Shown in pieces: positions 2,953 to 43,290 of a stretch of 64,000 nucleotides of DNA. Source of the stretch: Glycera tridactyla (Eukaryota); assembly GCA_965644265.1 (NCBI GenBank), contig OZ286461.1:76694001-76758000 (forward strand), read 5' to 3'. Every line of letters begins with the position of its first letter. Position 1 is the first letter of the stretch. Position numbers and translations under genes: made by a program. The notes beneath the pieces are model-generated. The model did no database searches, was not told the origin of the DNA, and saw only the letters and a program-made list of their open reading frames with translations.

Positions 2953-3407
2953 CTAAGATCATTTTGGCAGGCGATTCCGGAGGCAGCCAGAATATTACCA
3001 GTGTTAATGATGATAAAAGCACGCAAGGCAATATCAGAATATAATTGTAAAAGGCTGCTATGCGCTTCAAGTTGAGCGTGAAAGTTAAATCAGGGTAAGG
3101 TTCCTCGCAGCAGGGATAATACTTGGTGTTCTTTTTCGCGGGGTGCTTCATTAAGCCCCACTCATTACTTTCGATATAATCACTGACATCAACTTCCTCT
3201 AAGGAATCGTAAAAGTTGATATCAAGTTTAAATCCATCATATGTCCAGGAGCCGAACTTGAGGTTGCACTCTTGTTCGTCGAATGGGAAATGTGTGATGT
3301 CTATACTACATGTGCTTTTGAAGATGGCCATTGGAATCCAAAGGACGGTACCGTCACTGGAGATGACAGCCAGAGCATCGCGCTGCTCTTTTAAACGGGT
3401 ATCGGCA
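2953..3407 (-). CDS. Nicotinic acetylcholine receptor alpha-type subunit, 455-bp exon (C-terminal half of ligand-binding domain, TM1, start of TM2)
   Basis: Translation (Y)ADTRLKEQRDALAVISSDGTVLWIPMAIFKSTCSIDITHFPFDEQECNLKFGSWTYDG...YYPCCEEPYPDLTF...YNYILILPCVLLSSLTLVIFWLPPESPAKMILG contains the Cys-loop (C-x13-C with FPFD), loop B WTYDG, vicinal CC of alpha subunits, and TM1. Acceptor tcttcctctgcag ends at 3408; donor G|GTATGT starts at 2952. Confidence 0.96.
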
Positions 3408-4397
3408 CTGCAGAGGAAGAAAAACACAAGGAGCATGTGATAAGACATCCAAGCAAAACATACGGTCAAATGCATTACATATGTATCACAATCATTTCAA
3501 TTATATATTCTCTATATTCATCTAGACATTCCTTACACACGAAGATGCATTCATAGGAGGCAAAATGTATCGCTTAATTCCCATTTTACAGTATTCACAG
3601 TGAAAAGCGACTAATAACTATTGCTTCAATTCCTCCGATGATCAGAAGAAGCTCAACATTTCTTTTAATTTGCCTGCATTATACTTATATTGGAAGTAAG
3701 AAGGATGATCAAAACATTTATGTTAGTAGCGTGTTACTGGGAAGAATAAAATACGTCGCCTTCATCTCAATAAACATATATCAGTAGGATAAGTACATTC
3801 AGGACAAGCATTATTTTCTAATATATTAACAAATTCGAGTTAACAGTCACACAGGGGCGTGAATGTTGTGCACATTGGATGGTCTATCATAATTTACACG
3901 AGACTTCAAAAGTAAACATCAATCGCTAAAAAGTTTGGCCTATATTTGAGGACAAATTGTTCCATCTTCAGAAAGGCACCATTGTCACACTATGCAGGAT
4001 GTTACATTGACATCGTTTCGACATCAAGATTGTCGGTACAACAGATCACAATATTCATATTGTTTGTATGTCTACTAATTCCGTCCGTCGATATCTGAAT
4101 GGCAGCATCATGAAATCTGAACTGTGGTTGAGTAATGCACTCAAATTTCGGGAACTCACCTATTGCAGGATTGTAGAGGGAACTCATGTTAGCTTATTTT
4201 CTCAATTGACCCAGAAGCATAATAAGACTTACCCCGAAGATTGAGGAGTGCCTACCTACTATGTATTAGCATCCAACTGTCATGTGGCCGTTGTGCAAAT
4301 AGAAGTACTAACCTTTGATGTACTAGTGTCGGGCATTCTATCATCTTTCAATCAGATAATATCAAAAAGGAGCAGTAGGGAGGTAGTCAACATGATG

Positions 4398-4564: not shown

Positions 4565-5199
4565 TGGCCACCACTAACAACCAAGATAATGTCTATCATG
4601 ACAGCAATGATGGACGTGACACCCCTTCTACTGACAGGAATGACTCTACTGTATAATCGGCCCAGTATGGAACGCCATTGGGGACTTTATTCACCATTTA
4701 GGGTTCTCCCTAATTCGATTTATGGAGAACCATATTTATTTAGGGAGATCCCTAAATCATTTACGGTATTCCCTAAATCGAATTATGGAGAACCCTAATT
4801 ATTCGAGTATTTAGTGATCTCCCTAATTCGAATTATGGTTCTCACTAAATCAGAATTATGGAGAACCATAAATCGATTTAGGGAAAACCATAATATGAGA
4901 AATGAGCTGGTCGAATTAGTGATTTCCCTTCTTGAATTATGGTGATCCCATATTGAATAATGGATTTTGGTATCAAACTGCAAGGATTGCCACGACATTA
5001 AGTGAGAACCATAAATCAATTATGGTATACCCTAAATCACGACTATATGCCAATATCCATATATCATTTAGGGAGTTCCATAAATGATTTATGGAACTCC
5101 ATAATTCAGTCATGTTGCAAGTCCACCAAATTTAGTGATCTCCATAAATTGATTTATGGTTTTCCATGATTCGAATTAGGGAACACCCTAAATCGAATT

Positions 5200-7030
5200 A
5201 GGGATCTCCCTAAATCGATTTATGGAGTTCCCTAAATTAGGCCAGCCCATGGTGCTGCCATCTTACTTCAAATGAGGGCATTTAGGGAGATCCCTAATTT
5301 GATTTAGTGATCTCCATAAATCGATTTATGGTATTCCCTAATTCAAATTAGGGATCACCCTAAATCGATTTATGGAGTTCCCTAAATCAGGCCATCCCAT
5401 GGTGCTGCCATCTTACTTCAAATGAGCGCATTTAGGGAGATCCATAATTCGATTTAGTGATCTCCATAAATCGTTTTATGGTATTCCATAATTCGAATTA
5501 GGGATCTCCCTAAATCGAATTAGGGATCTCCCTAAATCGATTTATGGAGTTCCCTAAATTAGGCCAGCCCATGGTGCTGCCATCTTACTTCAAATGAGGG
5601 CATTTAGGGAGATCCCTAATTTGATTTAGTGATCTCCATAAATCGCTTTATGGTATTCCCTAATTCAAATTAGGGATCACCCTAAATCGATTTATGGAGT
5701 TCCCTAAATCAGGCCATCCCATGGTGCTGCCATCTTACTTCAAATGAGCGCATTTAGGGAGATCCATAATTCGATTTAGTGATCTCCATAAATCGTTTTA
5801 TGGTATTCCATAATTCGATTTAGGGATCTCCCTAAATCGATCTATGGAGTTTCCTAAATCGGGTCATCCCATGGTGCTGCCATCTTACTTCAAATGAGCG
5901 CATTTAGGGAGATCCATAATTCGATTTAGTGATCTCCATAAATCTTTTTATGGTATTCCATAATTCGAATTAGGGATCTCCCTAAATCGATTTATGGAGT
6001 TCCCTAAATCAGGCCATCCTATGGTGCTGCCATCTTACTTCAAATGAGTGCATTTAGGGAGATCCATAATTCGATTTAGTGATCTCCATAAATCGATTTA
6101 TGGTATTCCATAATTCGAATTAGGGATCTCCCTAAATCGATTTATGGAGTTCCCTAAATCAGGCCAGCCCATGGTGCTGCCATCTTACTTCAAATGAGGG
6201 CATTTAGGGAGATCCCTAATTCGATTTAGTGATCTCCATAAATCGATTTATGGTATTCCCTAATTCAAATTAGGGATCACCCTAAATCGATTTATGGAGT
6301 TCCCTAAATCAGGCCATCCCATGGTGCTGCCATCTTACTTCAAATGAGCGCATTTAGGGAGATCCATAATTCGATTCAGTGATCTCCATAAATCGTTTTA
6401 TGGTATTCCATAATTCGAATTAGGGATCTCCCTAAATCGATCTATGGAGTTTCCTAAATCGGGTCATCCCATGGTGCTGCCATCTTACTTCAAATGAGCG
6501 CATTTAGGGAGATCCATAATTCGATTTAGTGATCTCCATAAATTTTTTTTATGGTATTCCATGTTTCAAATTAGGGATCTCCCTAAATCGATTTATGGAG
6601 TTCCCTAAATCAGGCCATCCCATGGTGCTGCCATCTTACTTCAAATGAGTGCATTCATGGAGATCCATAAATCGATTTAGTGATCTCCATAAATCGATTT
6701 ATGGTATTCCATAATTCGAATTAGGGATCTCCCTAAATCGATTTATGGAGTTCCCTAAATCGGGCCATCCCATGGTGCTGCCATCTTACTTCAAATGAGC
6801 GCATTTAGGGAGATCCATAATTCGATTTAGTGATCTCCATAAATCAATTTATGGTATTCCATAATTCGAATTAGGGATCTCCCTAAATCGATTTATGGAG
6901 TTCCCTAAATCAGGCCATCCCATGGTGCTGCTATCTTACTTCAAATGAGCGCATTTAGGGAGATCCATAATTCGATTTAGTGATCTCCATAAATCGATTC
7001 ATGGTATTCCATAATTCGAATTAGGGATCT
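5200..7030 (+). repeat. 150-bp tandem satellite (~12 units) inside the foldback element
   Basis: Marker GGTGCTGC(C/T)ATCTTACTTC recurs at 5251, 5401, 5573, 5723, 5873, 6023, 6173, 6323, 6473, 6624, 6774 and 6924. Units are built from ~21-22-bp quasi-palindromic subrepeats (TAGGGATCTCCCTAAATCGATT). Inverted units at ~7035-7130 and ~7975-8340. Confidence 0.95.
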
Positions 7031-7133
7031 CCCTAAATGCCTTCATTTGAAGTAGGATGGCAGCACCATGGGCTGGCCTGATTCAGGGAACTCCATGAAT
7101 TGATTCAGGGAGATCCCTAATTCGATTTAGGGT

Positions 7134-7134
<1 letters not shown>

Positions 7135-7183
<49 letters not shown>

Positions 7184-7452
7184 GTCATTCTCTCTTTCTC
7201 CTCCCCCTCTCTCTCTCCCCCGTCTCCGTCTCCGTCTCTGTCTCCCGCGTCTGCTCTCGCTCCTGCTCTCGCTCCCTCCCCCTTCCATTTCTCCCTCCCC
7301 TCTCTCTGACTCTCTTTCTCTCCCTCCCCATCTCCCGCTCCCATTCCCGTTCCCGCTTCATGACGTCACAATTGATCACATACTGATTGTGACGACCCAG
7401 AGCTTCCTTCATTATGACGTCATAACAGCAATCCCCGACTTCGTTTTCTCCC

Positions 7453-7519
<67 letters not shown>

Positions 7520-7790
7520 ACCTCACTCTCTTTCTCCTCCCCCTCTCTCTCTCCCCCGTCTCCGTCTACGTCTCCGTATCCCGCTCTTGCTCCAGCTCCT
7601 GCTCTGGCTCCCTCCCCTTCCCTCTCTCCCTCCTCCCCCTCTCTCTCACACTCTCTCTCCCTCTCCGTCTCCCGCTCCCGCTTCATGACGTCACAATTGG
7701 TTGTACCCTTGGTATCACACACTGATTGTGACGAGAATGAGCTTCCTTCATTATGACGTCATAAGAGCGACCCCCGACTTTGTTTTCCTA
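7135..7790. repeat. Duplicated (CT)n-rich cassette at the centre of the foldback element
   Basis: Two (CT)n runs (~7136, ~7455), each followed by a related pyrimidine-rich tract and CTTCATGACGTCACAATTG...CTTCCTTCATTATGACGTCATAA (at ~7356 and ~7681). Confidence 0.9.
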
Positions 7791-10472
7791 GATCAAGCCA
7801 GTGGTGCTGCCATCTTACATCAAATGAAGGCATTTAGGGAGATCCCTAATTCGATTAAGTGATCTCCATAAATCGATTTATGGTTTCCATAATTCGAATT
7901 AGGGATCACCCTAAATTGATTTAGGGATCTCCCTAAATCGATTTATGGAGATCACTAAATCGAATTAGGGATCTTCCTAAATGCCTTCATTTGAAGTAAG
8001 ATGGCAGCACCATGGGTTGGCCTGATTTAGGGAACTCCATAAATCGATTTAGGGAGATCCCTAAATAGAATTATGGAAAACCATAAATCAATTTATGGAG
8101 ATCACTAAATCGAATTAGGGATCTCCCTGAATGCCTTTGTTTGAAGTGAGATGGCACCACCATAGGCTGGCATGATTTAGGGAACACCATAAATCGAATT
8201 AAGGAGATCACTAAATCGATTTAAGGATCTCCCTAAATGTCTTCATTTGAAGTAAGATGGCAGCACTATGGACTGGCCTGATTTAGGGAACTCCATAAAT
8301 CGATTTAGGGAGATCCCTAAATCGATTTAGGGTGATCCCTAATTTGAATTATGGAGAACCATATTTCATTCAGGAAAAACCATAAATGATTTATGGTTCT
8401 CCCTATATCTTCGAATTAGGGATCTCCATTAATAATTTATGGAGAACCTTAAATAGATTTAGTGATCTCCATAATTATTTAGGGTTTACCCTAATTCATT
8501 TATGGAACACCCTAAATGATTTATGGATCTCCCTAAATAAATATGGTTCTCCATAAATCGAATTAGGGAGAACCCTAAATGTTGAATAAAGTCCCCAATG
8601 GCGTTCCATAGCCCAGGGCTGTACAATGGATACGGGAATTGACACATTGAGTGTCTGTGAATCCCCTGTTGGGGACCTTGGAAGAGGGATAACCCGTGTC
8701 AATCGCATAGGCCTCTCAGTATAGATCAGATGGTACTGAAAGAACGTAAAACAATCAAGCAACCAAGTGACTAACAGTCTTCACTGAGTTGTTATCTCCC
8801 ATCATGAATCGAAGCAATACTCACCGACAACAATCACCACTGGCTAAGATGTTGGAGTTGCCGTGAGATGAATCATGAGAAAAGGTACATATGAAACAGT
8901 CAGGGTGTTAGACCAGCCCAATGTGTTTATTGATGGATCTATGCTGTCACTTCGTTGCCACAAAGATCCATTCTTGGAAAGAAGATGGCGATTACCAAAC
9001 AGAGAAACTCCGATATTTTCGATGTAATAGAACCAATCGCATAATGATTATGTCATTGGTGATGATGATCGTATCATATTGATGGTGAGTATGTCATTGA
9101 AAATGATAGTAACTAAGATGATGGTGGTGGTGGTAATGATGGTGGTGTAGGTGATAGTGTGGTGCTGGTGATTCAAGGTCGATTCACGTCGCTTCAAATT
9201 CATATACAGTGAATTCTGTTGATGATATGGCGCCCATATGTCGCGTATTTGTGGCTGCCAGTGTCCTTGCTATCGATTCAGAAAGAACGGGTTGTCACAT
9301 GAGAACACTGGGAATAGATAAACAATTTAATTAGCAGAGAGCTGCATTTTGTGGTCATCTCTATAGCAGGACACTTTTATTGAAAGCACTGGCATCTTGT
9401 TCATATCCATTTCAAACCAGTTCTCGTGGTTCAAATGCTCGATGAAAAGGGATCCATGTTACTCTGGACATCTCCAACCGTGCCTGAATCAACATCTATG
9501 AAGGCTGCATCCTGTGAATCATCATCAATATTCGAATATCTAACAGAGCTAAACATAAATCATAAATCTGCCAGAGCTATAATATCACGAGCATGGCCAG
9601 TTTGTTGTGCAATGATGTCTTCCCCATATGGTCGTCGCATTCTAATGGCTTGTATACTTTCAATAGATCGAAATCAGATACGATTCTAGTAAAAAAATAA
9701 AATTCAGAGTTCTCAACCATTCTGTGTTCAGGATTTGTGAGAGCGATAAACCTGACATCCATATATCTGACATTCATAGATCAGGAACCCATGACCAACA
9801 CATCCTTTTGGTTGACACATGCTTTCAAGCTTCAATTGATCGATCAATCAATCTGTCGATTAATCATTCAATCAGACAGTCAGTCAGTGAGCCAGCTGAT
9901 TAGTCAGTTTGTCAGTCAGTCAGTTATCCAGTCAGTTGATCTGTTAGCCTTTCAGTCAATCAATTAGCCAGTCTGTCAGTCTGTCAGTCTGTCTGTCTGT
10001 CTGTCAGTCCAATCAATCAATAGATCAATCAAGCTCACCATTTGCACGACCATTTGAATGCCAAACAGGACGAGGCAAGGACATCTCTTTCACCTCATGC
10101 TGGTAAGGTTCGAAATGAAGTTGTTTACATGTGACCGGTCACCGGTCACCAGTCGCATCAGTCACTAGATGGCACTGTGTCAATTGGTGACATCTAGTGT
10201 TTCCATAGTGATGCATTCTCCTGTGATGTCACAATGAGAGATGAGAGCCCATTCTCTCATCCCAGTCGAAATATTTGATTTAGGCTCAGGTTATCCAGAG
10301 TTTCGGCTTTATTCAGTCACCAAATAGCAATTTACAATTTCTGAGAAATTCCCCCCGACTTGGTTCAAAGATTGACGATCCAAAAAGTTTTCCACTTCTT
10401 TGTGTGGCCAAATACAACTAGAATTCATTTCGGAATTGATTCATCTCGATGTTAGTTTATATTTGACATTAA

Positions 10473-12575: not shown

Positions 12576-13942
12576 ATCTCATTTCTGTCCTGGTAGAATC
12601 TCCACTTCATACTATTCTTATAGAGTGATATTCTATCCTTGGTATTTAGTTCATTAGGCAGCATGTTTCTATGGATCTAATTGAATATGATCTCTAGTCC
12701 AAAGGTGATGTCATGGCTGCTGGTTGGATGAACATAGATGGAATGAAGGACTTGTGAGAGCTCCCTAAGAAGTAGCGAAAGAATATCATGCTATGTTCGA
12801 AGTAGTATAGTATGATATTTCTCTATTCGAGTTCGTCAAAAACAGTGTACATCAACACGTATGTACAATTACCCCAAGACCAAGGGGGCTTTTTCGGATT
12901 GACAAATACAGTAGTGATACTCAGCTAGCTCACTCTATGAGTATGAATATGATTATGATCATGATTATGAGATGAAAAGAGCAAGGTATGAATGAATGAG
13001 AGATGAGGATGCACCATGACACATGTGTTCCACTAAATCTAAGAAGGATAACTTCAACATATGAGTGGATAATATTGGCATGTCTTCATTGACATATCAC
13101 ATACAGTTTCTGGTGCTGGAAATGAACAATGGTTGGGAACCGATAATAAATGACGCACATAAATGACGAATTGGATATGATCCACATCGAGTATATCAAG
13201 TAGTCAATACTTCTCTTGCAAATCCTTTCAATACGTCGAAGTATTGAGTGGACAATGCGAAACATAAGTCTGGTGCGATGTAAGGGATGATCAAAATATA
13301 TGCCGAGACGGAGTCGAGGATTGATCAAACAAGAGAAAGAGAAGGAACATGCTCACTGAGCAGTCAACTGACAGTCAATCATCATACCGACGCTAAGATG
13401 TTATCAGCATGACTAGGAAAGATAGCGGGACTATTGGAGAACTACCCGAACGCCCGAACGACCCTTCAATGCTAGCGATTTCCATAAAATTACTCCTCAC
13501 GTTATGGCCTCAGAAAGAAATATCTCAAATTGCTGATCAGTCGAGGACCGCCGCACAATCCCTGATTCAGATCATGGCGCAACTACGATGAAGCACCAAC
13601 AGTGGGTGATTGATATGGACAGTGCATGAAAACAGCTTCATAGTCACTAATGAGAAACAAATGGATGGTAGGTTACGCACCATCTGGATCATCCAAGATC
13701 AATTCTGTGTATGCTTGTATTTGGATGGAGTGACAGGAGAGGGCATGTCTGGTAAGTGATGCGGTACTCACAGGAGATAAACCTGGGGTGTGTACACTGA
13801 TCTACATAAATGAAACTATAATGTAATATACACAGAAACAAGGTTCTCAGGATAATATGAGCGGATGTTCTACAGGAGTCTGGTCAACTTTTTGTGTTGG
13901 TACCAGGGCTCCATCCTTTCTATAGGCCTTGTTTGGTGACTC
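12576..13942 (+). repeat. 1367-bp direct repeat, copy 1 (abuts the LINE 5' end)
   Basis: Identical to 21985-23351 (offset 9409) except 4 transitions, by manual comparison: 12828/22237, 12904/22313, 13305/22714, 13516/22925. Confidence 0.97.
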
Positions 13943-14056
13943 TTTTTTTCCATACAAGGACATGCCGAGAGAGTAAGACGTACGTTTCGAGGGAGAGCAA
14001 AGTCGTTATTTCCTAGACATTGATGCCAGTGCGATAGTTAACCACGACACGAAAAT

Positions 14057-16675
14057 ATGAGTAAGAAGTCAAAGACTACGCTGAAGAAGGATGAATCTCC
14101 AGGTATTTTGGATTCAAGTAATATTAGACATTATTTCACACCGCTGGGAGCGGAACACAGTGTGAGCGATAAAGCAGCTAACGAAGCCCTTTCACCTGCT
14201 GTATTTTCATTACCTGGGGGTGATCTACCCCCGGCCGGGTTCGAACCTAGCACTTCACGGTCGACTGGACCGCAGTCTAGAGTAGAATCAGGTGTGCTCG
14301 CAGTCTCCTTGTCCGGGGATTTAGCGTCTCCGTCCATGCGTTCAGTCTCATCTCCTACCTCACCAGGCCCATTTGTCACCGCAGACTTGGCACAGGGTAC
14401 CGACACCACTCTCCCCACATCGAGTGGGGAGGAACATACACCACTTTACATTAGTACTGGTGTTGAAAATGATGATGAAACTGCGTTCTCCACATCGAGT
14501 GGAGATACCCCTTCATCAAGCAGAATCACCATTACCTCCACCATACTAGACACAATTGGCACCCCGAAGCTCGAGTCAAATAGCATTGATATTGCTGGTG
14601 AAACCTCCTCATCGTCTATAATCATTTGCTCCACCATGTCCTCCACATCGAGTGGAGAACCACCATGTTCAAATTTAACGGCCTGTGATGACCCAGACCA
14701 GAACCAACACACTCCTATCGACATGCAAGCTAACGATGCTGAATGTAGTTCGCGCACAATGAGTGGTAATCAACTGACGGATGTATCACTGAACTTCCTC
14801 CAAAAGTCTAGCATTGACGACCAGCGGGAGAATATACCAAATGAAAGTATGGTGATAATCAAAACACCTAAAAAGAAACAGGCTCCCCCCACAGCAGTAA
14901 AGAACAAAATTTTCGATTTCTTCAAAAACATTAATTTCATTCCCTCGGCGGATGATGATAGATTGGAACCTAACGATATTATCAATTCTGTCTCGAAAGT
15001 GAAACCTGTAAAGTATCGCTTTCCAGTAGATAATCTTTCAGTATCACCAGGAGTGAAGCGTAGGAACAAGAGCTCTTCACCTGATGCTAATGATGTCAAA
15101 GAAGATATAAAACGCCTGAAAGATGCAGGTGCCTCACCACCGATGGAAAATGAAACCATATTTTCAGCGAGTGCAACAGAGATGGACTATGAACCATCTA
15201 ATCCGAATCTACTTACCAGTCCCCCCAATCCAGCACTTATAAATCGTTCACTGACTTCACTTCTGGGGTCGGAAGTTAATCTTGACACTAATCCAGGTGA
15301 GAGTCCTTCGAATATGGATACCTTGAAGGACCTTAAGCAACTACTTCGGGATGAATTATGGACTGATCTGCGCAAAGAGCTTATGTCTGACCTGAAGTCT
15401 GAAATTTCAAATATGCACAAAGACCTAACCAGTCAGTTAAGTCGAGCACTTGACAAAAAAAGTAAAGGGCTTGAGAATGAACTGAAGGACTATATCAAAG
15501 GTGAGATCACGTCAGAAAGGATGTCGGTGTTGAAAGTAAGTGAAAAAGAAGTTATGTCAGCCACCATGTCTGAAGTGTCCAAAGAATTGGTTTCGGTTGA
15601 ATTGAAGGTCAAGAACCTTCAAAGGGATGTGAAATCTCTTTTTGCGAAGGTCAATAATGATGTGATAGTGCAGCATGTTAATGAAAATATACCTGACATA
15701 GTCATCCCACCTAAAACGGACAACTTGATCCGCTCAAATGATCTTGAAAAAGTTCATGCTCGATTAGAACAACTTGAGCTATCGGATCGCCTTAGTTGTA
15801 TTATTATAGAAGGTGTTGATATTGATCCGCAATATTCTCTGACAGAGAATATAACATTTTGCCTGAATACCAATCTTGATGTGTGTTTGTATGACTCAGA
15901 TATAGTGAAATGTACCTACCTAGGCAAATCAAAACGTGATCCCAGGCAAATCCTTGTAAGATTCAAAGACGTTGAAAACAAAAGGAAAATTCTGAAGCAA
16001 AAAAGTAAATTAAAGGGTGGTCGTATCTTTATCAAGGAGTTTCTCACTGCTAAGAATAATAATCTATTTTATCGAGCAAGAGAGTCCAAAAGGAGTAAGA
16101 ACTATAACAGGGTTTGGTCCTATGATGGCCTCATCTGGGGGGCCAAAAACTTTGACAGTCAACCAGAATTGATAAATGATGACAATCCTCCTACAGTGCC
16201 CACTGACATGAATAAAAAGAGACCAACTACCACTGAAAATCCACCGGTCTTCTCGGTCAATCCCAGGAATAATGGCACAAATCGAGCTCATAATTATAAT
16301 AATCCGCACCAAGTTTACCAGATGAATCAACCCCAGCCCCCACCCCCTCCTATACCGTTTCCACCTGTATGGCATCAACCACCACCAGGTTTTCCCTCGA
16401 AAACTCTACCAAGGTTCAATCATTTCCATGTTCCGCCGCCAGACTATCACCCGCTCGCATTTGTTGAGTCAGACAATTACAGGGAGAATTTTCCTGATAT
16501 AAATGGCCGACTACGCCCATCTGCCCCAGCCTTTAATCCTATTTGCCCGCCAGGGGCAGCCCAACCACCACATGAATCGAACTTCCCTCTTGCGCAACAC
16601 AATGGTAATACATTCCACCGTCCAGTGATACAACCGCTACGTGCAAATCAGCAACAACAACGCTTGTGGCGATAG
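14057..16675 (+). CDS. LINE ORF1 protein (872 aa): S/T-rich N-terminus, coiled coil, L1-type RRM + CTD, P/Q/N-rich tail
   Basis: Heptad-like region from ~aa 420 (TLKDLKQLLRDELWTDLRKELMSDLK...), then LEQLELSDRLSCIIIEGV...PRQILVRFKD..KRKIL..K.KLKG..IFIKEFLT..NNNLF..AR..K....VWSYDGLIW, which follows the L1-like RRM/CTD pattern of LINE ORF1 proteins. Confidence 0.85.
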   Translation: MSKKSKTTLKKDESPGILDSSNIRHYFTPLGAEHSVSDKAANEALSPAVFSLPGGDLPPAGFEPSTSRSTGPQSRVESGVLAVSLSGDLASPSMRSVSSPTSPGPFVTADLAQGTDTTLPTSSGEEHTPLYISTGVENDDETAFSTSSGDTPSSSRITITSTILDTIGTPKLESNSIDIAGETSSSSIIICSTMSSTSSGEPPCSNLTACDDPDQNQHTPIDMQANDAECSSRTMSGNQLTDVSLNFLQKSSIDDQRENIPNESMVIIKTPKKKQAPPTAVKNKIFDFFKNINFIPSADDDRLEPNDIINSVSKVKPVKYRFPVDNLSVSPGVKRRNKSSSPDANDVKEDIKRLKDAGASPPMENETIFSASATEMDYEPSNPNLLTSPPNPALINRSLTSLLGSEVNLDTNPGESPSNMDTLKDLKQLLRDELWTDLRKELMSDLKSEISNMHKDLTSQLSRALDKKSKGLENELKDYIKGEITSERMSVLKVSEKEVMSATMSEVSKELVSVELKVKNLQRDVKSLFAKVNNDVIVQHVNENIPDIVIPPKTDNLIRSNDLEKVHARLEQLELSDRLSCIIIEGVDIDPQYSLTENITFCLNTNLDVCLYDSDIVKCTYLGKSKRDPRQILVRFKDVENKRKILKQKSKLKGGRIFIKEFLTAKNNNLFYRARESKRSKNYNRVWSYDGLIWGAKNFDSQPELINDDNPPTVPTDMNKKRPTTTENPPVFSVNPRNNGTNRAHNYNNPHQVYQMNQPQPPPPPIPFPPVWHQPPPGFPSKTLPRFNHFHVPPPDYHPLAFVESDNYRENFPDINGRLRPSAPAFNPICPPGAAQPPHESNFPLAQHNGNTFHRPVIQPLRANQQQQRLWR

Positions 16676-17256
16676 TTGATTCATCTCATAGTCTTTAATC
16701 ATGGCTTATGTTCCTATCTACCGAAGACATTATGACCGTGTTCAACCCCCGAAACTTGTAAGCATTATATTTTTCTTCTTCTAGATATACTGTCTATAAC
16801 ATTTTTTTACTTTGCAACCACCGCCCGCGGCAGAAGTGACATAGCCATATAGTTGCACTCTATATTTAGTCATGACTCGGTCACTGACCCTGTGTGTGAA
16901 CCAGGTGTCGAAGAGCTCAGGTGTGTGAACTACACGCTGGTTATGTCTAGCGACGTAAATCAGAACTAGAAGTTCATCTACTTGCCGCTGTACAGAAACT
17001 GGGAGTGTGAGCCAAATCTCATTGCTGAATTACCTCGTGCTGATTTGTCTTAACCTAGCGGCCCATGAGTGCACCACAGTCGTGGGCTTTTTCCGCCAGT
17101 GCAATGCTAAATTACGACGATATTACCTGCGGTGGTGCTGAGAACTAATGTTGTCTATTCATACCGCCAGGTAAAACTGAGCATTCTCAACCAACTTGGT
17201 GATTTCAAAAGTGATCCGTATATATCCTATCTAGTTCTGCTCTCTTTGTATTGTAG

Positions 17257-18096
17257 AAATGTACCCCTCAGGACACGAACCAGGCCAAACAGAGGTTGAA
17301 CTACGTAGGCCCAGACAAATTGTTCAACGCTAAAAACATCTATCGTAGACATGGCCCACCGAAAATTCTATTACTTGGGGACTCTCATGTCATCCATGCG
17401 TCCTGTGCCATAGAGGACGTCCCTGAAGAGAATGAAATATCTCGCTTCATGACAGATACCATGTACCATGGGGTCAGTTGCTCCAAAATCTGGCGCCTTA
17501 TGGATAATCTCAAAGGAACTGGCATGAGTGACGAAAAATGTGCCAAGTATGGGAACCAATGGCAACGAGTGATTGATGGATCCTGGCGTCCAGAGTACAT
17601 CATTTTACTAATCGGGTGTAATGATGCGGACGACCTCAACTCTCGTCAAAACGTCCTATATCCAAATTTGGACAGTAAGTGTGCAGCTAAAATGGCCAAT
17701 GAGGAAGTTGACATATGGATCAACGAGTTATACCCTTGTATGTATGACTTAGTTAGTGAGATTCATGATGCATTCCCAGATGTGCCAATAGGGCACATCC
17801 CAGCATTCCCAAGAAGCTGGTGGGAAAATCCAACCAGAAGGCTCCTAAATTGTATAAATTTCAGATTTTATGGCCATCTGAAAAAGGAGTTCAAGGTTCG
17901 TCAGCTTACTACTCGCAGCCTGTATTACGACACTGGAAAACTTCCTGTTGGGTCAGGATATGCAGATGACATTATCCCAGGCTTTATGGACATAGATAAT
18001 GTACACCTCAACACCATGGGCTACGAGGTGATGTTGCGGGATGTCATCCCGAAGGTGATGGCTGCGTGTGAAACCAAGCCTAAATCAAAGAAATAG
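17257..18096 (+). CDS. SGNH/GDSL-family esterase ORF (279 codons open from 17257; no AUG before the catalytic Ser)
   Basis: Block I LLLGDSH (Ser 17383-17385), block II Gly (YHGVS), block III IGCND (17611-17625), block V DNVH (17995-18006). First in-frame ATG is at 17449, downstream of GDS. The frame opens immediately after ...ctctttgtattgtag (17256). Confidence 0.88.
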   Translation, partial: KCTPQDTNQAKQRLNYVGPDKLFNAKNIYRRHGPPKILLLGDSHVIHASCAIEDVPEENEISRFMTDTMYHGVSCSKIWRLMDNLKGTGMSDEKCAKYGNQWQRVIDGSWRPEYIILLIGCNDADDLNSRQNVLYPNLDSKCAAKMANEEVDIWINELYPCMYDLVSEIHDAFPDVPIGHIPAFPRSWWENPTRRLLNCINFRFYGHLKKEFKVRQLTTRSLYYDTGKLPVGSGYADDIIPGFMDIDNVHLNTMGYEVMLRDVIPKVMAACETKPKSKK

Positions 18097-18581
18097 TTAT
18101 CTCATGTTGTCACCTGAGGGCCACTGGGATCCCATTCCCTCCCATTAGTACCCCCTCCCGACAACTCCATTACCCCTCTCTAGATACTCTCTGTATCTCG
18201 ACAAGTAATTATGAAAACTAACTGGTATACCTTAAATAAAAGATTAAATCAGATGTTTTGTTGTCTACCTATATACTTATTAGACATTTACATCCTGGGA
18301 TCACCCTGTTGATGGTATTATATGTGGCGAAATGAAGTGTGTGTTTTTGCTGTGTGCTGAGAGACAAGTAGATTCATCCTCGAGGATATGGTAACCACGA
18401 TGGTCGGTGATCTGTGAATGCCCACTGACCATCCATCTGCCAATATCCAAGGTCAGAACTGCTTTTATATCTATATTTCCAACTGATAATAAAATCTGCC
18501 ATGGTTGTTTATGAACATATATGCAATGCTCTCCCGAAATTCCATTAATTGTCTGCCAACATCTGAAATCTATAATCAAGA

Positions 18582-21548
18582 ATGCCAAGACCACGTAAGT
18601 ACAAATATATCTTTCCACTGAGCCATGAGACCAGTGTCAGCAGTTACTGTTCGATGGCGCTATCTAATCTGCCTGGCATTGCTACGGGTGCTCTAAACAT
18701 CCGTAGCATTATCAGGAAGCACGATGACGTCTCTTCCATCTTAAAAATAAGTGACTTGGATATAATGTGTTTGACAGAATCGTTCCTGAATGATAGTATT
18801 ACCGATGCGGAAATGTACATACCATCCTATAAGTTTTTCCGTCAGGATCGTACTATTAACTGTCATAAAAATGGGGGTGGTGGGATTATTGTGTATGTCA
18901 AGAGTCATCTGAATACCAAATTGAATGTTGAATTATGTCATTGCTCTCCTGATTTGGAAGTCCTGAGTTTCAGTTTGTTTTTGGAACAGACTAGGCCAAC
19001 GCACTATCTAACCATATACCGACCGCCAGATGGCAATCTCAAAAAGGCTTTAGACGTTCTTGAAGATATCCTTTCTCGACCTGTCTTTGTGTCATTGAAT
19101 GATACAATATTCGTGGGTGATGTGAACATTGACCTTCTAAATCCACGTAATCATAAGACTATCATGTATAACAAATTCTGTGAAGCTGTAGGGTTTTACC
19201 ATCTGATCACAGAGGCAACTCGCATCTCGTTAAATAGTAAAAGCTGCATTGATCATATTTTGGTCAATCGTCCTGAATATTACGCAAGTTATGGAATCTT
19301 AGACCCAGGGTTGAGTGACCATTGTCTTATCTATACCTCTAGACATAGATTCAAGAGCAAGAAACCAAAAGAAATGATAGAAATTCGTTCTCGTCGGAAG
19401 TTTGATCATAATACATTCAACAACAGTCTAATAAATCACAATTGGAGTAGGATCTACGATGCACCGAATACTGATGAGGCGTCAGAATCCTTCTCAAATG
19501 ATTTCGTAGAAATTCTAAATAAACACGCCCCCCTGAAACGTGTTCCATGCAGATCTGACCATCAACCCTGGGTCAACCATGAGTACCTGAGTATGATTGA
19601 TTACGTTGAATATAGATCGAAAATCTATAATAAAACGCCCACAAATCTTAATCTGGAAATGAAAAAAGAGGCCCTACGTAGCAAAAATCGCCTGAAAAAA
19701 TCACTAAAAAGATCTTTTATTTGTGACAGTCTGAACGACACAAAAGGAGACAGTAGAAAATTGTGGAAGCAATCAAAGCGCATCTGGCCGCTCACATCAA
19801 AGGAATCTGTGGTCCCAACATTAGGTGCTGATCAGTTTTCTGTGAACAATACGGATTATGTAAACCATGTAAATGAATATTTTTCAAATGTTGGTGCCAC
19901 CCTTGCTGAACGTTTTGAGAACCAAAATGACCCTATAATTGATGGAAATGATACAGATGTTAATATAATTGATAATGTGGATAGTTTTTGCCTAAAAGAA
20001 GTCGATGTTGGGAATGTCGAAAGTGCCATCTCTAGATTGAGCAATACCTCTGCCTATGGATCGGACGGAATCAGCAGTTTTTATGTGAAACAAGCTATCT
20101 CGTCTATCAGTTCGCTACTAGTCTATATATTCAATAAATCAATCAATGAAGCAACTTTTCCAAAAATCTGGAAGCATGCAACTATCAGTGTTCTACACAA
20201 AGGGGGGCTAACAAATGATCTCGGAAATTTTAGGCCAATATCATTGCTTTGTATCCTGGGGAAAGTTTTAGAACGCTTGATACATGATCAAACTACTGCT
20301 TTTCTGGAGAAATTTGGTGTCCTAAGTACTGCTCAATTCGGGTTCAGGAAGGGATACTCCACAGGCTCTTGTCTGGCCTCATTACTTGATGACATCTACT
20401 GCTCAGCAGACGCAGGCCTAGTGAGTGGAGTTCTCTTCCTGGACCTGAAAAAAGCGTTTGATACAGTAAACCACTCCATCCTACTAGCTCGTCTTGTTAG
20501 GAACAATTTCGGAGGCACCACCGTTAGATGGTTCAGTTCTTACCTGAGAGGAAGATCACAATCAACTCGAATCGGTCTGACTACATCGAGTCCTTTACCA
20601 ATCGAACACGGTGTCCCCCAAGGGTCCATCCTTGGACCATTACTGTTCATTGTCTATGTAAATGATATATTCAACTATGTGAACCACTGTCGGCCGCTAC
20701 TATATGCAGATGACACGGCACTGCTTGTGTCAGGGCCGAATAGTATGATTGTTGAAGAAAAATTAAATAATGATTTGGTCGGAATATCGAAGTGGTTTAA
20801 AGACCTGAAATTGACAGTCAACATCGTAAAATCAAAGACTATGTTATTCGGGACTAACAAGCGCTTGCTATTGAATGATGGTTTGAATGTCAAACTAGAT
20901 GATATCAGAATTGATCAGGTATCTAAATACAAGTATCTCGGAGTTCAGTTAGATCCATCCCTCAGCTTTGAGGCACATGTCAAATATATTGTTAATAAGG
21001 TACACTTTAGACGATGGGCATTAACTTATTCGAGACCGTCGATCACTAAAGACACGGCCCTTTATTTATTTAACAGTCTTATACAGCCTCTATATTATTA
21101 TGCTGACTACATCTATGGCGCTTGCTCAAAGAGAACGAGTAAACGACTCCAAATATCTCAGAATCGCTGTTTAAGTGTGATAAATGAGTCAGGCTGGAAC
21201 TATTCGGCCTCTGAACTACATGAGATACTGAAAGTGGACAACCTGGAGGTGACAAGGAAACAACACCTATTGTCTGAGGTATATAAGGCAGTGAAGGGTA
21301 CACAACACGGCCCGTTATCATATCTTTTCAGAAAGAAGGACAACCATGGAAAGCACCATGATACTAGACATAGTCGATCCCAGAACAATAATCTTACTGT
21401 CCCGAAGAATAAACTCCAATTTGCAGATAATAGCCTTCGATATCGGGGCCCAGTACTCTGGAATAAACTTGACCATGAGACGAAGAATTGTGAAAGCCTA
21501 TCATCATTTAAGGCAAAATTAAAATCCTGCCCATCGTTAGCTGGATAA
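18582..21548 (+). CDS. LINE ORF2 (988 aa): AP endonuclease + reverse transcriptase
   Basis: APE motifs LNIRS, CLTES, YRPP, GDVNIDL, IDHILV, SDHCLI. RT motifs FRPISLL, QFGFRKG, FLDLKKAFDTVNH, GVPQGSILGPLLF, YADDT, YKYLG. C-terminal S..YRG..LWN.L as in CR1/L2/Crack-type elements. Confidence 0.97.
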   Translation: MPRPRKYKYIFPLSHETSVSSYCSMALSNLPGIATGALNIRSIIRKHDDVSSILKISDLDIMCLTESFLNDSITDAEMYIPSYKFFRQDRTINCHKNGGGGIIVYVKSHLNTKLNVELCHCSPDLEVLSFSLFLEQTRPTHYLTIYRPPDGNLKKALDVLEDILSRPVFVSLNDTIFVGDVNIDLLNPRNHKTIMYNKFCEAVGFYHLITEATRISLNSKSCIDHILVNRPEYYASYGILDPGLSDHCLIYTSRHRFKSKKPKEMIEIRSRRKFDHNTFNNSLINHNWSRIYDAPNTDEASESFSNDFVEILNKHAPLKRVPCRSDHQPWVNHEYLSMIDYVEYRSKIYNKTPTNLNLEMKKEALRSKNRLKKSLKRSFICDSLNDTKGDSRKLWKQSKRIWPLTSKESVVPTLGADQFSVNNTDYVNHVNEYFSNVGATLAERFENQNDPIIDGNDTDVNIIDNVDSFCLKEVDVGNVESAISRLSNTSAYGSDGISSFYVKQAISSISSLLVYIFNKSINEATFPKIWKHATISVLHKGGLTNDLGNFRPISLLCILGKVLERLIHDQTTAFLEKFGVLSTAQFGFRKGYSTGSCLASLLDDIYCSADAGLVSGVLFLDLKKAFDTVNHSILLARLVRNNFGGTTVRWFSSYLRGRSQSTRIGLTTSSPLPIEHGVPQGSILGPLLFIVYVNDIFNYVNHCRPLLYADDTALLVSGPNSMIVEEKLNNDLVGISKWFKDLKLTVNIVKSKTMLFGTNKRLLLNDGLNVKLDDIRIDQVSKYKYLGVQLDPSLSFEAHVKYIVNKVHFRRWALTYSRPSITKDTALYLFNSLIQPLYYYADYIYGACSKRTSKRLQISQNRCLSVINESGWNYSASELHEILKVDNLEVTRKQHLLSEVYKAVKGTQHGPLSYLFRKKDNHGKHHDTRHSRSQNNNLTVPKNKLQFADNSLRYRGPVLWNKLDHETKNCESLSSFKAKLKSCPSLAG

Positions 21549-21891
21549 GTACACCGAGTACTTAAGCCCGGCTCTTGAATATGCTAATATAGGATAGTTA
21601 TGTTATGGTATTACTGTCATTGTCTAGTAAGCTGATGTGAACACTTTTGCCAGTACCTTTATGATATTTGATACTGTATAAGAAGAAATTGAATGTACGC
21701 GGTGAGGAATACGTAACTAAAAATAATGGGTATGTATAATTGGAATGAGGGTGTATAAAAGGTGTGCTGAGAGGTGGAAACTGATTGCAATTTTAGTTGT
21801 TGTTACTTTGAGAATGAAATGTGACCCAGTGTACAGTATGACGGAGATCTTCCGATTGCATCTATAACCAGTTTGCATAAGTTTGTGATAC

Positions 21892-21905
21892 GACCCTTCG
21901 GGGTC
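21892..21905 (+). promoter_or_regulatory. 3'-UTR stem-loop GACCC-TTCG-GGGTC of the LINE (candidate RT recognition element)
   Basis: 5-bp stem closed by C-G with a UUCG loop, ~55 nt upstream of the tail. L2-clade LINEs are known to use 3' stem-loops. Function here is inferred. Confidence 0.5.
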
Positions 21906-21984
21906 CTGAGTTATCTGTTATGTTATGTTATATATAATATGTTTACTTATGCAATAAACAATTCTTATTCTTATTCTTATTCTT

Positions 21985-23351
21985 ATCTCATTTCTGTCCT
22001 GGTAGAATCTCCACTTCATACTATTCTTATAGAGTGATATTCTATCCTTGGTATTTAGTTCATTAGGCAGCATGTTTCTATGGATCTAATTGAATATGAT
22101 CTCTAGTCCAAAGGTGATGTCATGGCTGCTGGTTGGATGAACATAGATGGAATGAAGGACTTGTGAGAGCTCCCTAAGAAGTAGCGAAAGAATATCATGC
22201 TATGTTCGAAGTAGTATAGTATGATATTTCTCTATTTGAGTTCGTCAAAAACAGTGTACATCAACACGTATGTACAATTACCCCAAGACCAAGGGGGCTT
22301 TTTCGGATTGACGAATACAGTAGTGATACTCAGCTAGCTCACTCTATGAGTATGAATATGATTATGATCATGATTATGAGATGAAAAGAGCAAGGTATGA
22401 ATGAATGAGAGATGAGGATGCACCATGACACATGTGTTCCACTAAATCTAAGAAGGATAACTTCAACATATGAGTGGATAATATTGGCATGTCTTCATTG
22501 ACATATCACATACAGTTTCTGGTGCTGGAAATGAACAATGGTTGGGAACCGATAATAAATGACGCACATAAATGACGAATTGGATATGATCCACATCGAG
22601 TATATCAAGTAGTCAATACTTCTCTTGCAAATCCTTTCAATACGTCGAAGTATTGAGTGGACAATGCGAAACATAAGTCTGGTGCGATGTAAGGGATGAT
22701 CAAAATATATGCCAAGACGGAGTCGAGGATTGATCAAACAAGAGAAAGAGAAGGAACATGCTCACTGAGCAGTCAACTGACAGTCAATCATCATACCGAC
22801 GCTAAGATGTTATCAGCATGACTAGGAAAGATAGCGGGACTATTGGAGAACTACCCGAACGCCCGAACGACCCTTCAATGCTAGCGATTTCCATAAAATT
22901 ACTCCTCACGTTATGGCCTCAGAAGGAAATATCTCAAATTGCTGATCAGTCGAGGACCGCCGCACAATCCCTGATTCAGATCATGGCGCAACTACGATGA
23001 AGCACCAACAGTGGGTGATTGATATGGACAGTGCATGAAAACAGCTTCATAGTCACTAATGAGAAACAAATGGATGGTAGGTTACGCACCATCTGGATCA
23101 TCCAAGATCAATTCTGTGTATGCTTGTATTTGGATGGAGTGACAGGAGAGGGCATGTCTGGTAAGTGATGCGGTACTCACAGGAGATAAACCTGGGGTGT
23201 GTACACTGATCTACATAAATGAAACTATAATGTAATATACACAGAAACAAGGTTCTCAGGATAATATGAGCGGATGTTCTACAGGAGTCTGGTCAACTTT
23301 TTGTGTTGGTACCAGGGCTCCATCCTTTCTATAGGCCTTGTTTGGTGACTC
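21985..23351 (+). repeat. 1367-bp direct repeat, copy 2 (starts right after the LINE tail)
   Basis: Matches 12576-13942; see copy 1. Confidence 0.97.
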
Positions 23352-40400: not shown

Positions 40401-43290
40401 AGGAATGTCTTTGTCATGGAGGAGACTTTCAAGGTTGGTTCATCAATTTCAACATCTCAGATCGCAATTCAGTGAAGAAATTAGACTGCACTTTTCGGGG
40501 AAGCTGAACTCCCATATCTGCACAATCGATATGATTTCCCAGATGTTTGATGATCATGTTTGATGATCATGAAGTCCTTTTGAGGAAGTCCTTCTCTTTC
40601 TCTGTCTACCAGTGCTACTAACTGCTTCATCGGAGGCTGGTAATGTGTGAAAATGTCTACCATATACTTGGCCTGATGTATTTTGCTCCAATATACACTA
40701 GACATAAAATCATCGAACATGTATATGGACCTCTGATCACACTAAGAAGCTTACGAGACTCGACAGATCATTCAGCTGATGTTCATGAACGAGATTGGTG
40801 TTAGAGGTGGAAGTGTATATACATACATTAGCAATCACTTTTCAATGTCTCAAAAGGGAGGGGGGAGGTCTACATCATATAGCTTTTCCAACATGCAAGA
40901 GGGGATATTGAAATATAATTGTTTTATATATTTCTACTGCCCAGGTATTGTTTGTAATTTGTTTTGGAACAGTGAGAATATGTATGAGAACCAACCTTCT
41001 GCTCTCATTTGAATCCATCTGGTTTGGAGAGACATTGAGTTTCAAAAATAATGAAAAGTCTGGTCATGACTTGAGGGGGCTGGGCCGGGGATCGTATTAC
41101 ATGGTTTCACTTAATTAATCAATCAATCTCATGGTCAGTCTAGACATTCATCCCGATTCGTGCGGTTTATTGAATTGCAAATATGCAATTATTTTCTCCT
41201 CACGGGTATGGGATTGTTGGAGATGCAGATAATGAGCAGCATCAATCACAGCAGCTACTGATGGTGAAATCATGACTACATGGAATGATATCCAGAATGG
41301 AACATTCTGCCGGATCGATAAAGCCATTTAATTAAATGGGCGTTCTGCCGTCATCTGATGCACGCCAATCCCCTTAGATTCTACTGATACTAACCCTGGT
41401 CTCTCCACATCTCCACCCAGTATCTGTAATGATGAATACTAGTCTCTGGAAATGTGGCAGTACTCGTGCTTCCCTCATGAGACTGGTCTCTCAATCTATG
41501 ATCACCTTTAAAGGATAATGTATCGCAAGATGGTTTTATGGCTGGCATTTGATGGTATGTATCACACCAAAAGGGATGTGCTGATGGACAACACATCTAT
41601 ATAATTCGAAGAGTGTCATCCCTGAGGCATGATGGCAACAATAGAAATATGGAGGAAAATGCTTCAATACAGGGTCTATCCAATTCCGGCATTCAAATGA
41701 GCTTCATCGCTTGCCTGGTAAAACACTCTGACAGAGAAGGACAATAACTCGGCTATCATCGTCATCATACTAGAACAAAGGCCATCCTTGGTGATGATTT
41801 ACAGGACCTACATTGCAATGATAACATTAGTATCATCAGATGGTTTTGGGAAGGAATAAGGACTCGCTTAAGTGATTCATGATTCTCATGTACTCATGTG
41901 AGGAGATTCAATTATAGATAGTTTTATTCTAGCATTCCGGTCACATATGATGGCTTTTGTTGTTCATCCAATAATGCTATTTATACCAAATACAGTCATG
42001 ACCGCAGTCATTATAACCACTATCCAGGCCTTCATCGAAAACAAACGCAATATTAGAGCAAACCAACAGATAGAATCATCTGATGAGACGGTTATCCTGC
42101 TAATTCTATCAGGCCATAATGTGTCTCAAGTAGTGAATAGAAGACCCAAAACGCCATGGCGATAACTATCCCAATTGAAAGCTGAGACCAGATAGTTTCC
42201 GATAGATTTCACAGTATCAAGATATAATCTTTCTCATATACTGTCTACAGATAAAATTCTTGCTACTGGCAATGGAGTGCATATACCATAGATTCATCTT
42301 CGGTCACCTGTTACTTAATAATCACCATATATCTTGTGTATGGTTTCACGAGAAAGGTTCCGCTGTCCACCCGATCAGTATGAAGAAATGTGGCCCTACC
42401 AGTAGGTCACATGGAGAAAACATGTTATATCACCATATTGCCAAGCCAGGAGAAGCTCTAGATTTTTTTCCAGATGTATTTCAAATCAACTATTCTGACT
42501 GACCATAGATGCGTGATGTCAGATCCCATTCGGATGGTGCGAGAGGTTGTGCAGATTCCGTAGTGGTCATATCGACTAGGAATTATTTCTGTTAGAATCT
42601 TAGATTATCTTGGGCGGGACTTGATCCTCACAACATCGACAGGTATCAGTTGACACATGACAAATTGCAAATCAGCAAAATTTGCTTGATTAGTTCGTCG
42701 TATGTATTATGTAAAGTGAGCATCATCAGGGCTGAATTTGGATATGAATTAAATGGGCATGGGTGGAGGTCATCACGGACTATATATCATGGGTCTGCGA
42801 AGGAATGTACAAATTCGTGAAAGTCACACATTTCTCATGCATCTGCTAGACGATTTACTGATTACAATGGAATCCTCCTTTATTTTACTTCTTACTCTTG
42901 ACATTGAACATCAATATTCGCAGTCACCAGAATATCGAGTCATGATCATAGCATGTATGATTAGGCTCATAATAGTTGGTTCTCCATGAGTGATGGCTGC
43001 CCTGTCTACAGTGGTGTCGAAACCTAAACTGGTCGTATTCAGGGAGTTCCCTAAAACTTTTTGGAGAGAGTGTGATTTGCGACAATGACGAAGGGTATGC
43101 AAAGCTAGCAGCCTAGATTCTCATCCTATACATCAAAGTTCAGCTCATTATCGGTAACCTAGCAACACAGAATAAAAAAATAATGATCAGCAATCATGTT
43201 AGGGTTTGTGAGATGGAGTGGCATGCACGCCAGGAGTCAGGCGATGTTCGTGGAAACAGATAATGACACACGTGATGCAGCAACAGCACT

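Follow-up and report, generated by a model that had tools for sequence, protein, structure and literature searches.

A stretch of 64,000 nucleotides (nt) of the Glycera tridactyla genome (assembly GCA_965644265.1, contig OZ286461.1, positions 76,694,001 to 76,758,000 of the forward strand), here called the window, holds an intact long interspersed nuclear element (LINE) at about positions 13960-21984. The element has three genes, namely open reading frame 1 (ORF1), an esterase gene and ORF2. From the comparison of its copies we consider it probable that the esterase is a separate gene with a predicted intron, and that ribosomes shunt past the first two genes to reach ORF2, which encodes the reverse transcriptase. 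The features of the element are listed below in window coordinates.

13962..13976, forward strand: 5'-terminal short ORF (MPRE-stop), predicted shunt take-off, with its ATG within a few nt of the element 5' end
13991..13999, forward strand: 5' strand GGGAGAGCA of a predicted long-range RNA helix, 14 nt past the short-ORF stop and covarying with the 3' strand
14057..16675, forward strand: ORF1, 872 amino acids, with a disordered N-terminal part, a coiled coil, an L1-type RRM-CTD and a Pro/Gln-rich tail with a PAM2-like motif
15536..15541, forward strand: GTAAGT, put forward as a splice donor in an earlier reading of this DNA (the original prediction); unconserved and judged a chance match
16701..16757, forward strand: esterase exon 1 with its own ATG, 19 codons (MAYVPIYRRHYDRVQPPKL), starting 25 nt past the ORF1 stop
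16758..17256, forward strand: predicted phase-0 spliceosomal intron of 499 nt, from GTAAGC to a pyrimidine tract and TAG
17257..18096, forward strand: esterase exon 2, 279 amino acids, an SGNH hydrolase by catalytic residues, structural model and Foldseek
18235..18264, forward strand: internal poly(A) signal AATAAA with a GU-rich tract, predicted end of a spliced short RNA
18527..18535, forward strand: helix 3' strand TGCTCTCCC, the reverse complement of 13991-13999
18536..18581, forward strand: AUG-free stretch that ends at the ORF2 start, where ribosomes are predicted to land and rescan, with AUG depletion relative to dinucleotide shuffles
18582..21548, forward strand: ORF2, APE endonuclease and reverse transcriptase, with its own conserved ATG (MPRPRK) and no splice acceptor ahead
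21953..21984, forward strand: 3' end of the element by sequence, AATAAA and an (ATTCTT)n tail

A genome search for relatives gave 140 matches, from 139 scored of 3307 candidates, and 10 kb were fetched around 80 relatives chosen for spread. Together with the window copy, these 81 copies form 33 clusters at 80% esterase identity, with identities down to 31%.

The original prediction had recognized the esterase frame as a spliced terminal exon, and this part was borne out. The frame opens directly past TTCTGCTCTCTTTGTATTGTAG (17256), the catalytic serine codon lies at 17383 and the first in-frame ATG at 17449, as had been described. The acceptor AG is kept in 79 of the 81 copies behind a T-rich tract (CAG 56, TAG 22, AAG 1, mutated 2; two copies needed a register shift of 1-2 nt), and both DNA and protein similarity among copies start at the first base past it. 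The partner exon, however, had been wrongly assigned. Alignment of the spacers between ORF1 and the esterase revealed a conserved mini-exon that begins with the ATG at 16701, runs for 19 codons and is followed by GTAAGC at 16758. This exon 1 was found with a profile in 75 of 81 copies, and the six misses also lack an ORF1 match. GT stands at exactly +57 from the exon start in 75 of 75, within GTAAGT (41), GTAAGC (12), GTGAGT (12), GTAAGA (6), GTAGGT (2) or other donors (2). The ATG is present in 72 of the 75 and its context is strong: 71 of these 72 copies have a purine at -3, and 64 have G at +4. Entropy by codon position in exon 1 is 1.09, 0.84 and 1.66, the third position being the most variable. 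The predicted intron ranges from 319 to 1533 nt and occurs in all three frames across copies, with both exons conserved, and it is 52-56% identical where exon 2 is 74-81% identical. An unspliced reading of exon 1 ends after 35 codons in the window copy. A conserved donor, a pyrimidine tract, YAG and phase-compatible exons are the marks of a GT-AG spliceosomal intron, and judged from these sequence features the intron at 16758-17256 is very probably spliced out. A point against splicing is the branch-point motif YTRAY, which is not enriched (31/81 copies vs 33/81 in a control window).

Since the conserved donor at 16758 closes a 19-codon exon with its own ATG, the esterase is read as a gene in its own right, which has its own start codon and whose predicted spliced product counts 298 amino acids, not as a 772-amino-acid isoform of ORF1. 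The latter had been proposed in the original prediction, in which splicing from the donor at 15536 to 17257 would give a coiled-coil-esterase protein. This donor is a good match, AAA followed by GTAAGT in phase 0 past codon 493; the sum of 493 and 279 codons does give 772, and a coiled coil stands ahead of the esterase in ZfL2-1 ORF1p, as described in the portion of PMC3905857 available to us. However, the donor is not conserved across copies, the very property to which the original prediction had tied its case: among 40 intact ORF1s it occurs in 2, the window copy and a 92%-identical sibling, while the nearer donor with its own-ATG exon is found in 75 of 75. By chance, a phase-0 GTRAGT of some kind occurs anywhere in 17 of the 40 ORF1s. 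Homologous proteins from outside the genome begin with the exon-1 peptide and not with a coiled coil. It is thus extremely improbable that the fusion is the functional esterase, and in the window copy it would be a minor by-product at most. The other explanation offered at the time, an ATG at 17259 separated from the esterase by a frameshift or indel, does not hold up either, as 39 of the 81 copies have this ATG, in every case out of frame, and the rest lack it; its letters are part of Lys-Cys codons.

The structural model of exon 2 (pLDDT 92) has an SGNH hydrolase fold, with GDSL lipases and PAF-AH as the top Foldseek matches. Ser43, Gly72, Asn122, Asp247 and His250 are kept in 69-74 of 75 intact copies. 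The ESM Atlas returned generic SGNH clusters only, the PDB searched by sequence gave no significant match, and a single-query protein search gave no match. Among the outside homologues, the best 150 of 205 were examined and 30 reach far enough N-terminally. Six of these 30 have PIY-x-x, exactly 10 residues and x-Cys in one protein, which is the spacing predicted from splicing, and in 12 of the 30 the motif is in the splice-predicted register. These proteins show the contiguity of the two exons at the protein level, not splicing in Glycera tridactyla. Their source DNA was seen for one record only, L137 (see below); that they may stem from intronless DNA, transcripts or gene calls weakens their bearing on the intron. 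Seven homologues (P0009, P0033, P0058, P0060, P0085, P0099 and P0133) have a Gln after Phe/Leu/Tyr-rich residues at approximately the exon-2 boundary. This pattern corresponds to a translated pyrimidine tract with CAG, and the same esterase intron may be present in other organisms.

In 34 of 40 copies the exon-1 ATG follows the ORF1 stop at a distance of 1-49 nt, and the other six have premature ORF1 stops. No conserved acceptor was found ahead of exon 1; the weak AGs seen there at about -145 were considered as a second acceptor and rejected, being explained by an ORF1 peptide motif. A trans-spliced leader that supplies the ATG was also considered and is made unnecessary by exon 1. Due to the closeness of the exon-1 ATG to the ORF1 stop and the lack of a conserved acceptor ahead of it, re-initiation is favored over a second splice, and we lean towards a translation of the esterase by ribosomes that re-initiate after the ORF1 stop. 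Alternatively, a promoter at the end of ORF1 could drive the esterase as a nested transcription unit, which would dispense with re-initiation and would be compatible with both the intron and the shunt. The short first exon, the strong ATG context, the intron and the poly(A) signal indeed have the look of an ordinary gene, but a nested unit does not account for an exon-1 ATG that tracks the ORF1 stop across families, and no shared DNA motif beyond the coding bias of ORF1 was seen in the 300 nt upstream of exon 1. We regard such a unit as somewhat unlikely.

No intronless copy was found: none of 50 exon-1 matches in the genome joins exon 2, 45 of them are followed by GTRAG and five have a variant or damaged donor or an insertion. 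The exon junction pattern gave 1 match in the genome and a control also 1. As a spliced full-length RNA would be copied back and lose its intron, the spliced RNA is probably not full length. A candidate end lies past the esterase, where the window copy has AATAAA at 18235-18240 and TGTTTTGTTGT at 18254-18264. The original prediction had named this poly(A) signal, and it holds for close relatives, with AATAAA at +90 to +200 nt past the esterase stop in 13 of 15 nearest-family copies and 9 of 10 copies of the next family, but not for many distant families, which lack a nearby signal. AATAAA is found in 54 of 76 spacers between esterase and ORF2, compared with 34 in shuffles. Its absence from 22 of the 76 spacers and its large distance from the esterase stop in many distant families speak against an internal end, and the antisense motif TTTATT is also somewhat raised (38 vs 30 in shuffles), so that the internal poly(A) step is only moderately supported. 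On balance we give a slight preference to a splice-coupled internal polyadenylation. A short spliced RNA, having neither ORF2 nor the 3' tail, would not be copied back, and integrated copies would therefore keep the intron. No poly(A)-ended short retrocopies were found among five copies without a nearby ORF2 start. The same spacer (18117-18420) holds further subfamily-conserved elements, namely a hairpin-like GGGC..GCCC motif past the stop, and CCTGGGATCAC with a later GGTGATC, which could pair.

ORF2 (PF03372, E 1.3e-10; PF00078, E 2.8e-35) starts 4.6 kb from the element 5' end and 1.9 kb past the ORF1 stop. No splice acceptor was found ahead of it, and none of nine leader matches, all of them known full elements, joins the leader directly to ORF2. 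The commonest 7-mer in the esterase-ORF2 spacers is CTCTCCC, which 58 of 76 contain, mostly 27-300 nt ahead of ORF2. Its reverse complement, GGGAGAG, is a motif of the 5' leader. The complementary strands are 9-15 nt long and 4.3-8.3 kb apart. In 34 of 41 elements, an ORF of 4-6 codons with an unconserved peptide lies at the 5' end and stops between -18 and -13 nt relative to the helix core, and 37 of 40 ATGs in this short-ORF window are in frame with that stop. In 38 unique elements the perfect helix has a mean of 11.7 bp with its own partners; when partners are swapped the mean is 8.9 +/- 0.3, with 10.0 as the maximum of 5000. Double-sided changes are seen at one position as C-G 26 and T-A 12 and at the next as A-T 18, G-C 13 and T-A 2; about a dozen separate double-sided changes were read by eye off the tree. 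A motif-blind search ranked the helix first in 33 of 41 elements and found variant helices with a short ORF upstream in six further elements without the usual core. What the copies conserve in the predicted helix is the pairing rather than the sequence. In the stretch from the 3' strand to ORF2, 65 copies hold 61 ATGs compared with 172.7 (minimum 144) in dinucleotide shuffles, whereas the same stretch is not depleted in TGA (184 vs 173) or GAT (153 vs 146). The landing zone is G-poor (13% vs 17%).

The same layout occurs in L137, a relative from another organism, whose 10.4-kb record comes from a metagenome collection and has the same three genes with a frameshifted ORF1. Here MAE-stop is followed after 13 nt by an 11-bp helix of unrelated sequence (the tied longest complement), and 149 AUG-free nt lead to ORF2. 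The L137 esterase lacks an internal intron; 11 nt before its ATG stand a pyrimidine tract and TAG (3381-3423), a candidate donor, CAG followed by GTGAGC, lies inside ORF1 (571), and there is a 480-amino-acid low-complexity tail. Possibly its esterase is made from an env-like spliced RNA instead.

A short ORF of unconserved peptide that stops ahead of a helix is the arrangement typical of ribosome shunts, and by its sequence the element has it. Several observations nevertheless weigh against a shunt to ORF2. The 39 elements of the helix test were picked by eye for the core motif, and the kinship of copies inflates the test. The landing zone equals the upstream sequence in A+U content (62% vs 62%) and holds at least one ATG in 34 of 65 copies. 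In the window copy the helix has only 9 bp and is not the longest complement, and an ORF1 site near 16385 pairs slightly better in silico (-21.8 vs -18.7 kcal/mol). As regards the helix, the sibling L064 lacks the 3' strand. Moreover, the gap between stop and helix is mostly 11-15 nt, compared with 7-8 nt for rice tungro bacilliform virus (RTBV) and rice tungro spherical virus (RTSV).

Two other explanations of these patterns have to be weighed. If the intron is real and ORF2 has an internal promoter with a pyrimidine-rich start near CTCTCC, the AUG-free stretch would be a 5' untranslated region (5' UTR) and the complementarity would help the RNA to fold, to be packaged or to be protected from splicing. 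A 5' UTR would account for the AUG depletion just as well, the 3' motif persists in 5'-truncated copies, and the helix can form only in RNA that is read past the internal poly(A) site. An internal promoter leaves unexplained, however, why a short ORF stands at a fixed distance before the 5' strand, in frame in 37 of 40, and why the 3' motif covaries with the 5' strand up to full replacement in L137; we consider it unlikely. Alternatively, the helix could be a bridge that carries initiation factors or the 40S subunit from the capped end to ORF2, with the short ORF only tuning ORF1. The same covariation and AUG depletion would be expected, and uORF-independent shunts as well as a shunt from the 5' end to Pol in duck hepatitis B virus are described in the part of PMC5902531 accessible to us. 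But the distance from stop to helix stays fixed while the short-ORF ATG shifts in threes, which is difficult to reconcile with a bridge that works without translation of the short ORF, and we think such a bridge quite unlikely. A ribosome shunt triggered by the short ORF, across two genes to ORF2, is in our view the probable route.

We hypothesize that one promoter likely gives rise to two RNAs. RNA 1 would have lost the intron 16758-17256 by splicing and would likely end at the internal poly(A) site; it would carry ORF1 together with the 298-amino-acid esterase, the latter likely translated by re-initiation just past the ORF1 stop. Without ORF2 and the 3' tail, RNA 1 would escape copying back. 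RNA 2, unspliced and of full length, would be the template for copying. On RNA 2, ribosomes would translate the 5' short ORF and stop ahead of the helix, whose two strands connect the leader with a site some 50 nt ahead of ORF2. Part of the ribosomes would pass over the helix, a jump of about 4,500 nt, and then scan the AUG-free stretch to ORF2, and others would scan on to ORF1. In a wider sense, the chances appear even that a LINE lineage present in more than one organism follows a virus-like program from one promoter, in which a retained intron and internal polyadenylation provide the esterase, and a 4-8 kb shunt triggered by the short ORF ensures that only RNA whose 5' end is intact yields reverse transcriptase.

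The CR1-group esterase LINEs (ZfL2-1 and vertebrate CR1, with type IV ORF1) resemble the present element in having an SGNH esterase, its catalytic residues intact, ahead of an APE-RT ORF2, and in a short-repeat tail. According to the available part of PMC3905857, their esterases lie in ORF1 behind coiled coils, with none accompanied by an RRM in Repbase. In the present element, by contrast, the esterase is not fused to ORF1 behind a coiled coil but is a separate middle gene without coiled coil and with a predicted intron, beside a full L1-type ORF1 with RRM-CTD. The ORF1 fold is shared with L2/CR1/Daphne elements with type II (transposase-22) ORF1, whose ORF1 is like human L1 ORF1p. The literature, as far as its text was at hand, gives those elements two ORFs, whereas three are present here; in the accessible portions of PMC4120745 and PMC13343379, ORF1 types are listed with two ORFs at most. 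Our literature searches turned up no paper on a LINE whose esterase is a separate gene split by an intron, or on a LINE that uses a shunt, and Repbase or Dfam entries and supplements could hold a three-ORF description. A pairing of RRM-type ORF1 and esterase has been reported as absent within ORF1 proteins; the present element suggests that the two can work in one element. Because the RRM-type ORF1 stands beside a separate esterase gene, the esterase can be tested on its own.

How LINE ORF2 is translated is an open and important question, with re-initiation and an internal ribosome entry site as candidates in the part of PMC3894237 seen; a shunt would be a third answer, with predictions at the base-pair level from a large family. 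PMC5902531, in the same accessible part, describes the shunt layout, termination-reinitiation for LINEs and the 5'-to-Pol shunt of duck hepatitis B virus, in which, as is proposed here, a whole gene is skipped to reach the reverse transcriptase. The pararetroviral shunts (cauliflower mosaic virus, RTBV, RTSV, foamy virus) are described in the texts at hand with a 5'-proximal unconserved short ORF, a helix of swappable sequence and rescanning to a long ORF, all of which have counterparts, in part predicted, here. In contrast to their leader of about 0.5 kb, the loop here would span 4.3-8.3 kb with two genes, and the helix has 9-15 bp. If ORF2 needs the 5' leader, 5'-truncated copies would make no reverse transcriptase, which would give a built-in bias to full-length elements.

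The original prediction had likened the arrangement to subgenomic splicing, and we judge this likeness right. Long terminal repeat (LTR) elements (copia/EVADE GAG, ATHILA env, rotifer ORF3 GDSL esterases) also use a spliced RNA for an accessory protein and the unspliced RNA as genome, as reported in the accessible parts of PMC7197481 and PMC5408684; here, in contrast, the element is a LINE, and the predicted intron interrupts the coding sequence of the accessory gene itself. Penelope-like elements likewise keep an intron through retrotransposition. They differ in reverse transcriptase class and integration, and their introns are mostly in the 5' UTR, with the reason for retention stated to be unknown in the part of PMC8557442 consulted. 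A retained coding intron is a paradox so far noted for Penelope-like elements; the short spliced RNA proposed here suggests a simple solution to this paradox.

In its AlphaFold model, ORF1 residues 556-713 fold like human L1 ORF1p (Foldseek top match 2yko, E 1.1e-6), by which ORF1 is of the type II (L1-like) class with RRM and CTD; its coiled coil was assigned from sequence alone. Near the C-terminus, at about 16514-16543, lies the PAM2-like motif L-x-x-x-A-x-x-F/Y-x-P, which could bind poly(A)-binding protein. It is found 50-70 residues before the ORF1 end in 25 of 34 intact ORF1s, and Pfam PAM2 gave a weak match in 1 of 27 proteins scanned. At ORF1 codon 36 (14162-14172), (G/A/C)TGAGCGATAA is conserved at the nucleotide level across families; in one clade this site is a strong donor (AAG followed by GTGAGC), and other clades lack the GT. 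The recurrent GTRAG at ORF1 codons 36 and 634 was rejected as donor, since these sites change to non-GT or follow Val-Arg codons. Most families have, between helix and ORF1, a second short ORF whose context is weak (here 14023-14037), and the ORF1 ATG is 64-65 or 127-130 nt from the helix core.

The best outside ORF2 matches are 29-40% identical and carry no clade label. A GACCC-TTCG-GGGTC stem-loop in the 3' UTR (21892-21905), with variants in at least seven other copies, is likely the recognition site of the reverse transcriptase. A search of Rfam gave 0 matches, and no relative was found in the viral contigs searched.

5'-truncated copies exist in the genome, as is typical of APE-type LINEs. 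The element is flanked by a 1367-bp direct repeat (12576-13942 and 21985-23351, 99.7% identical), which is present in full length only at these two sites of the genome. It is a target-site duplication of very great length, and about 19 additional nt precede the element 5' end; a reading as LTR was rejected, as the repeat is single-locus DNA that is full length only at the two flanks. Elsewhere in the window, there are two tandem arrays, one at 5130-8400 with a period of about 150 bp and some inverted copies, and one at 43290-45700 with a period of about 93 bp.

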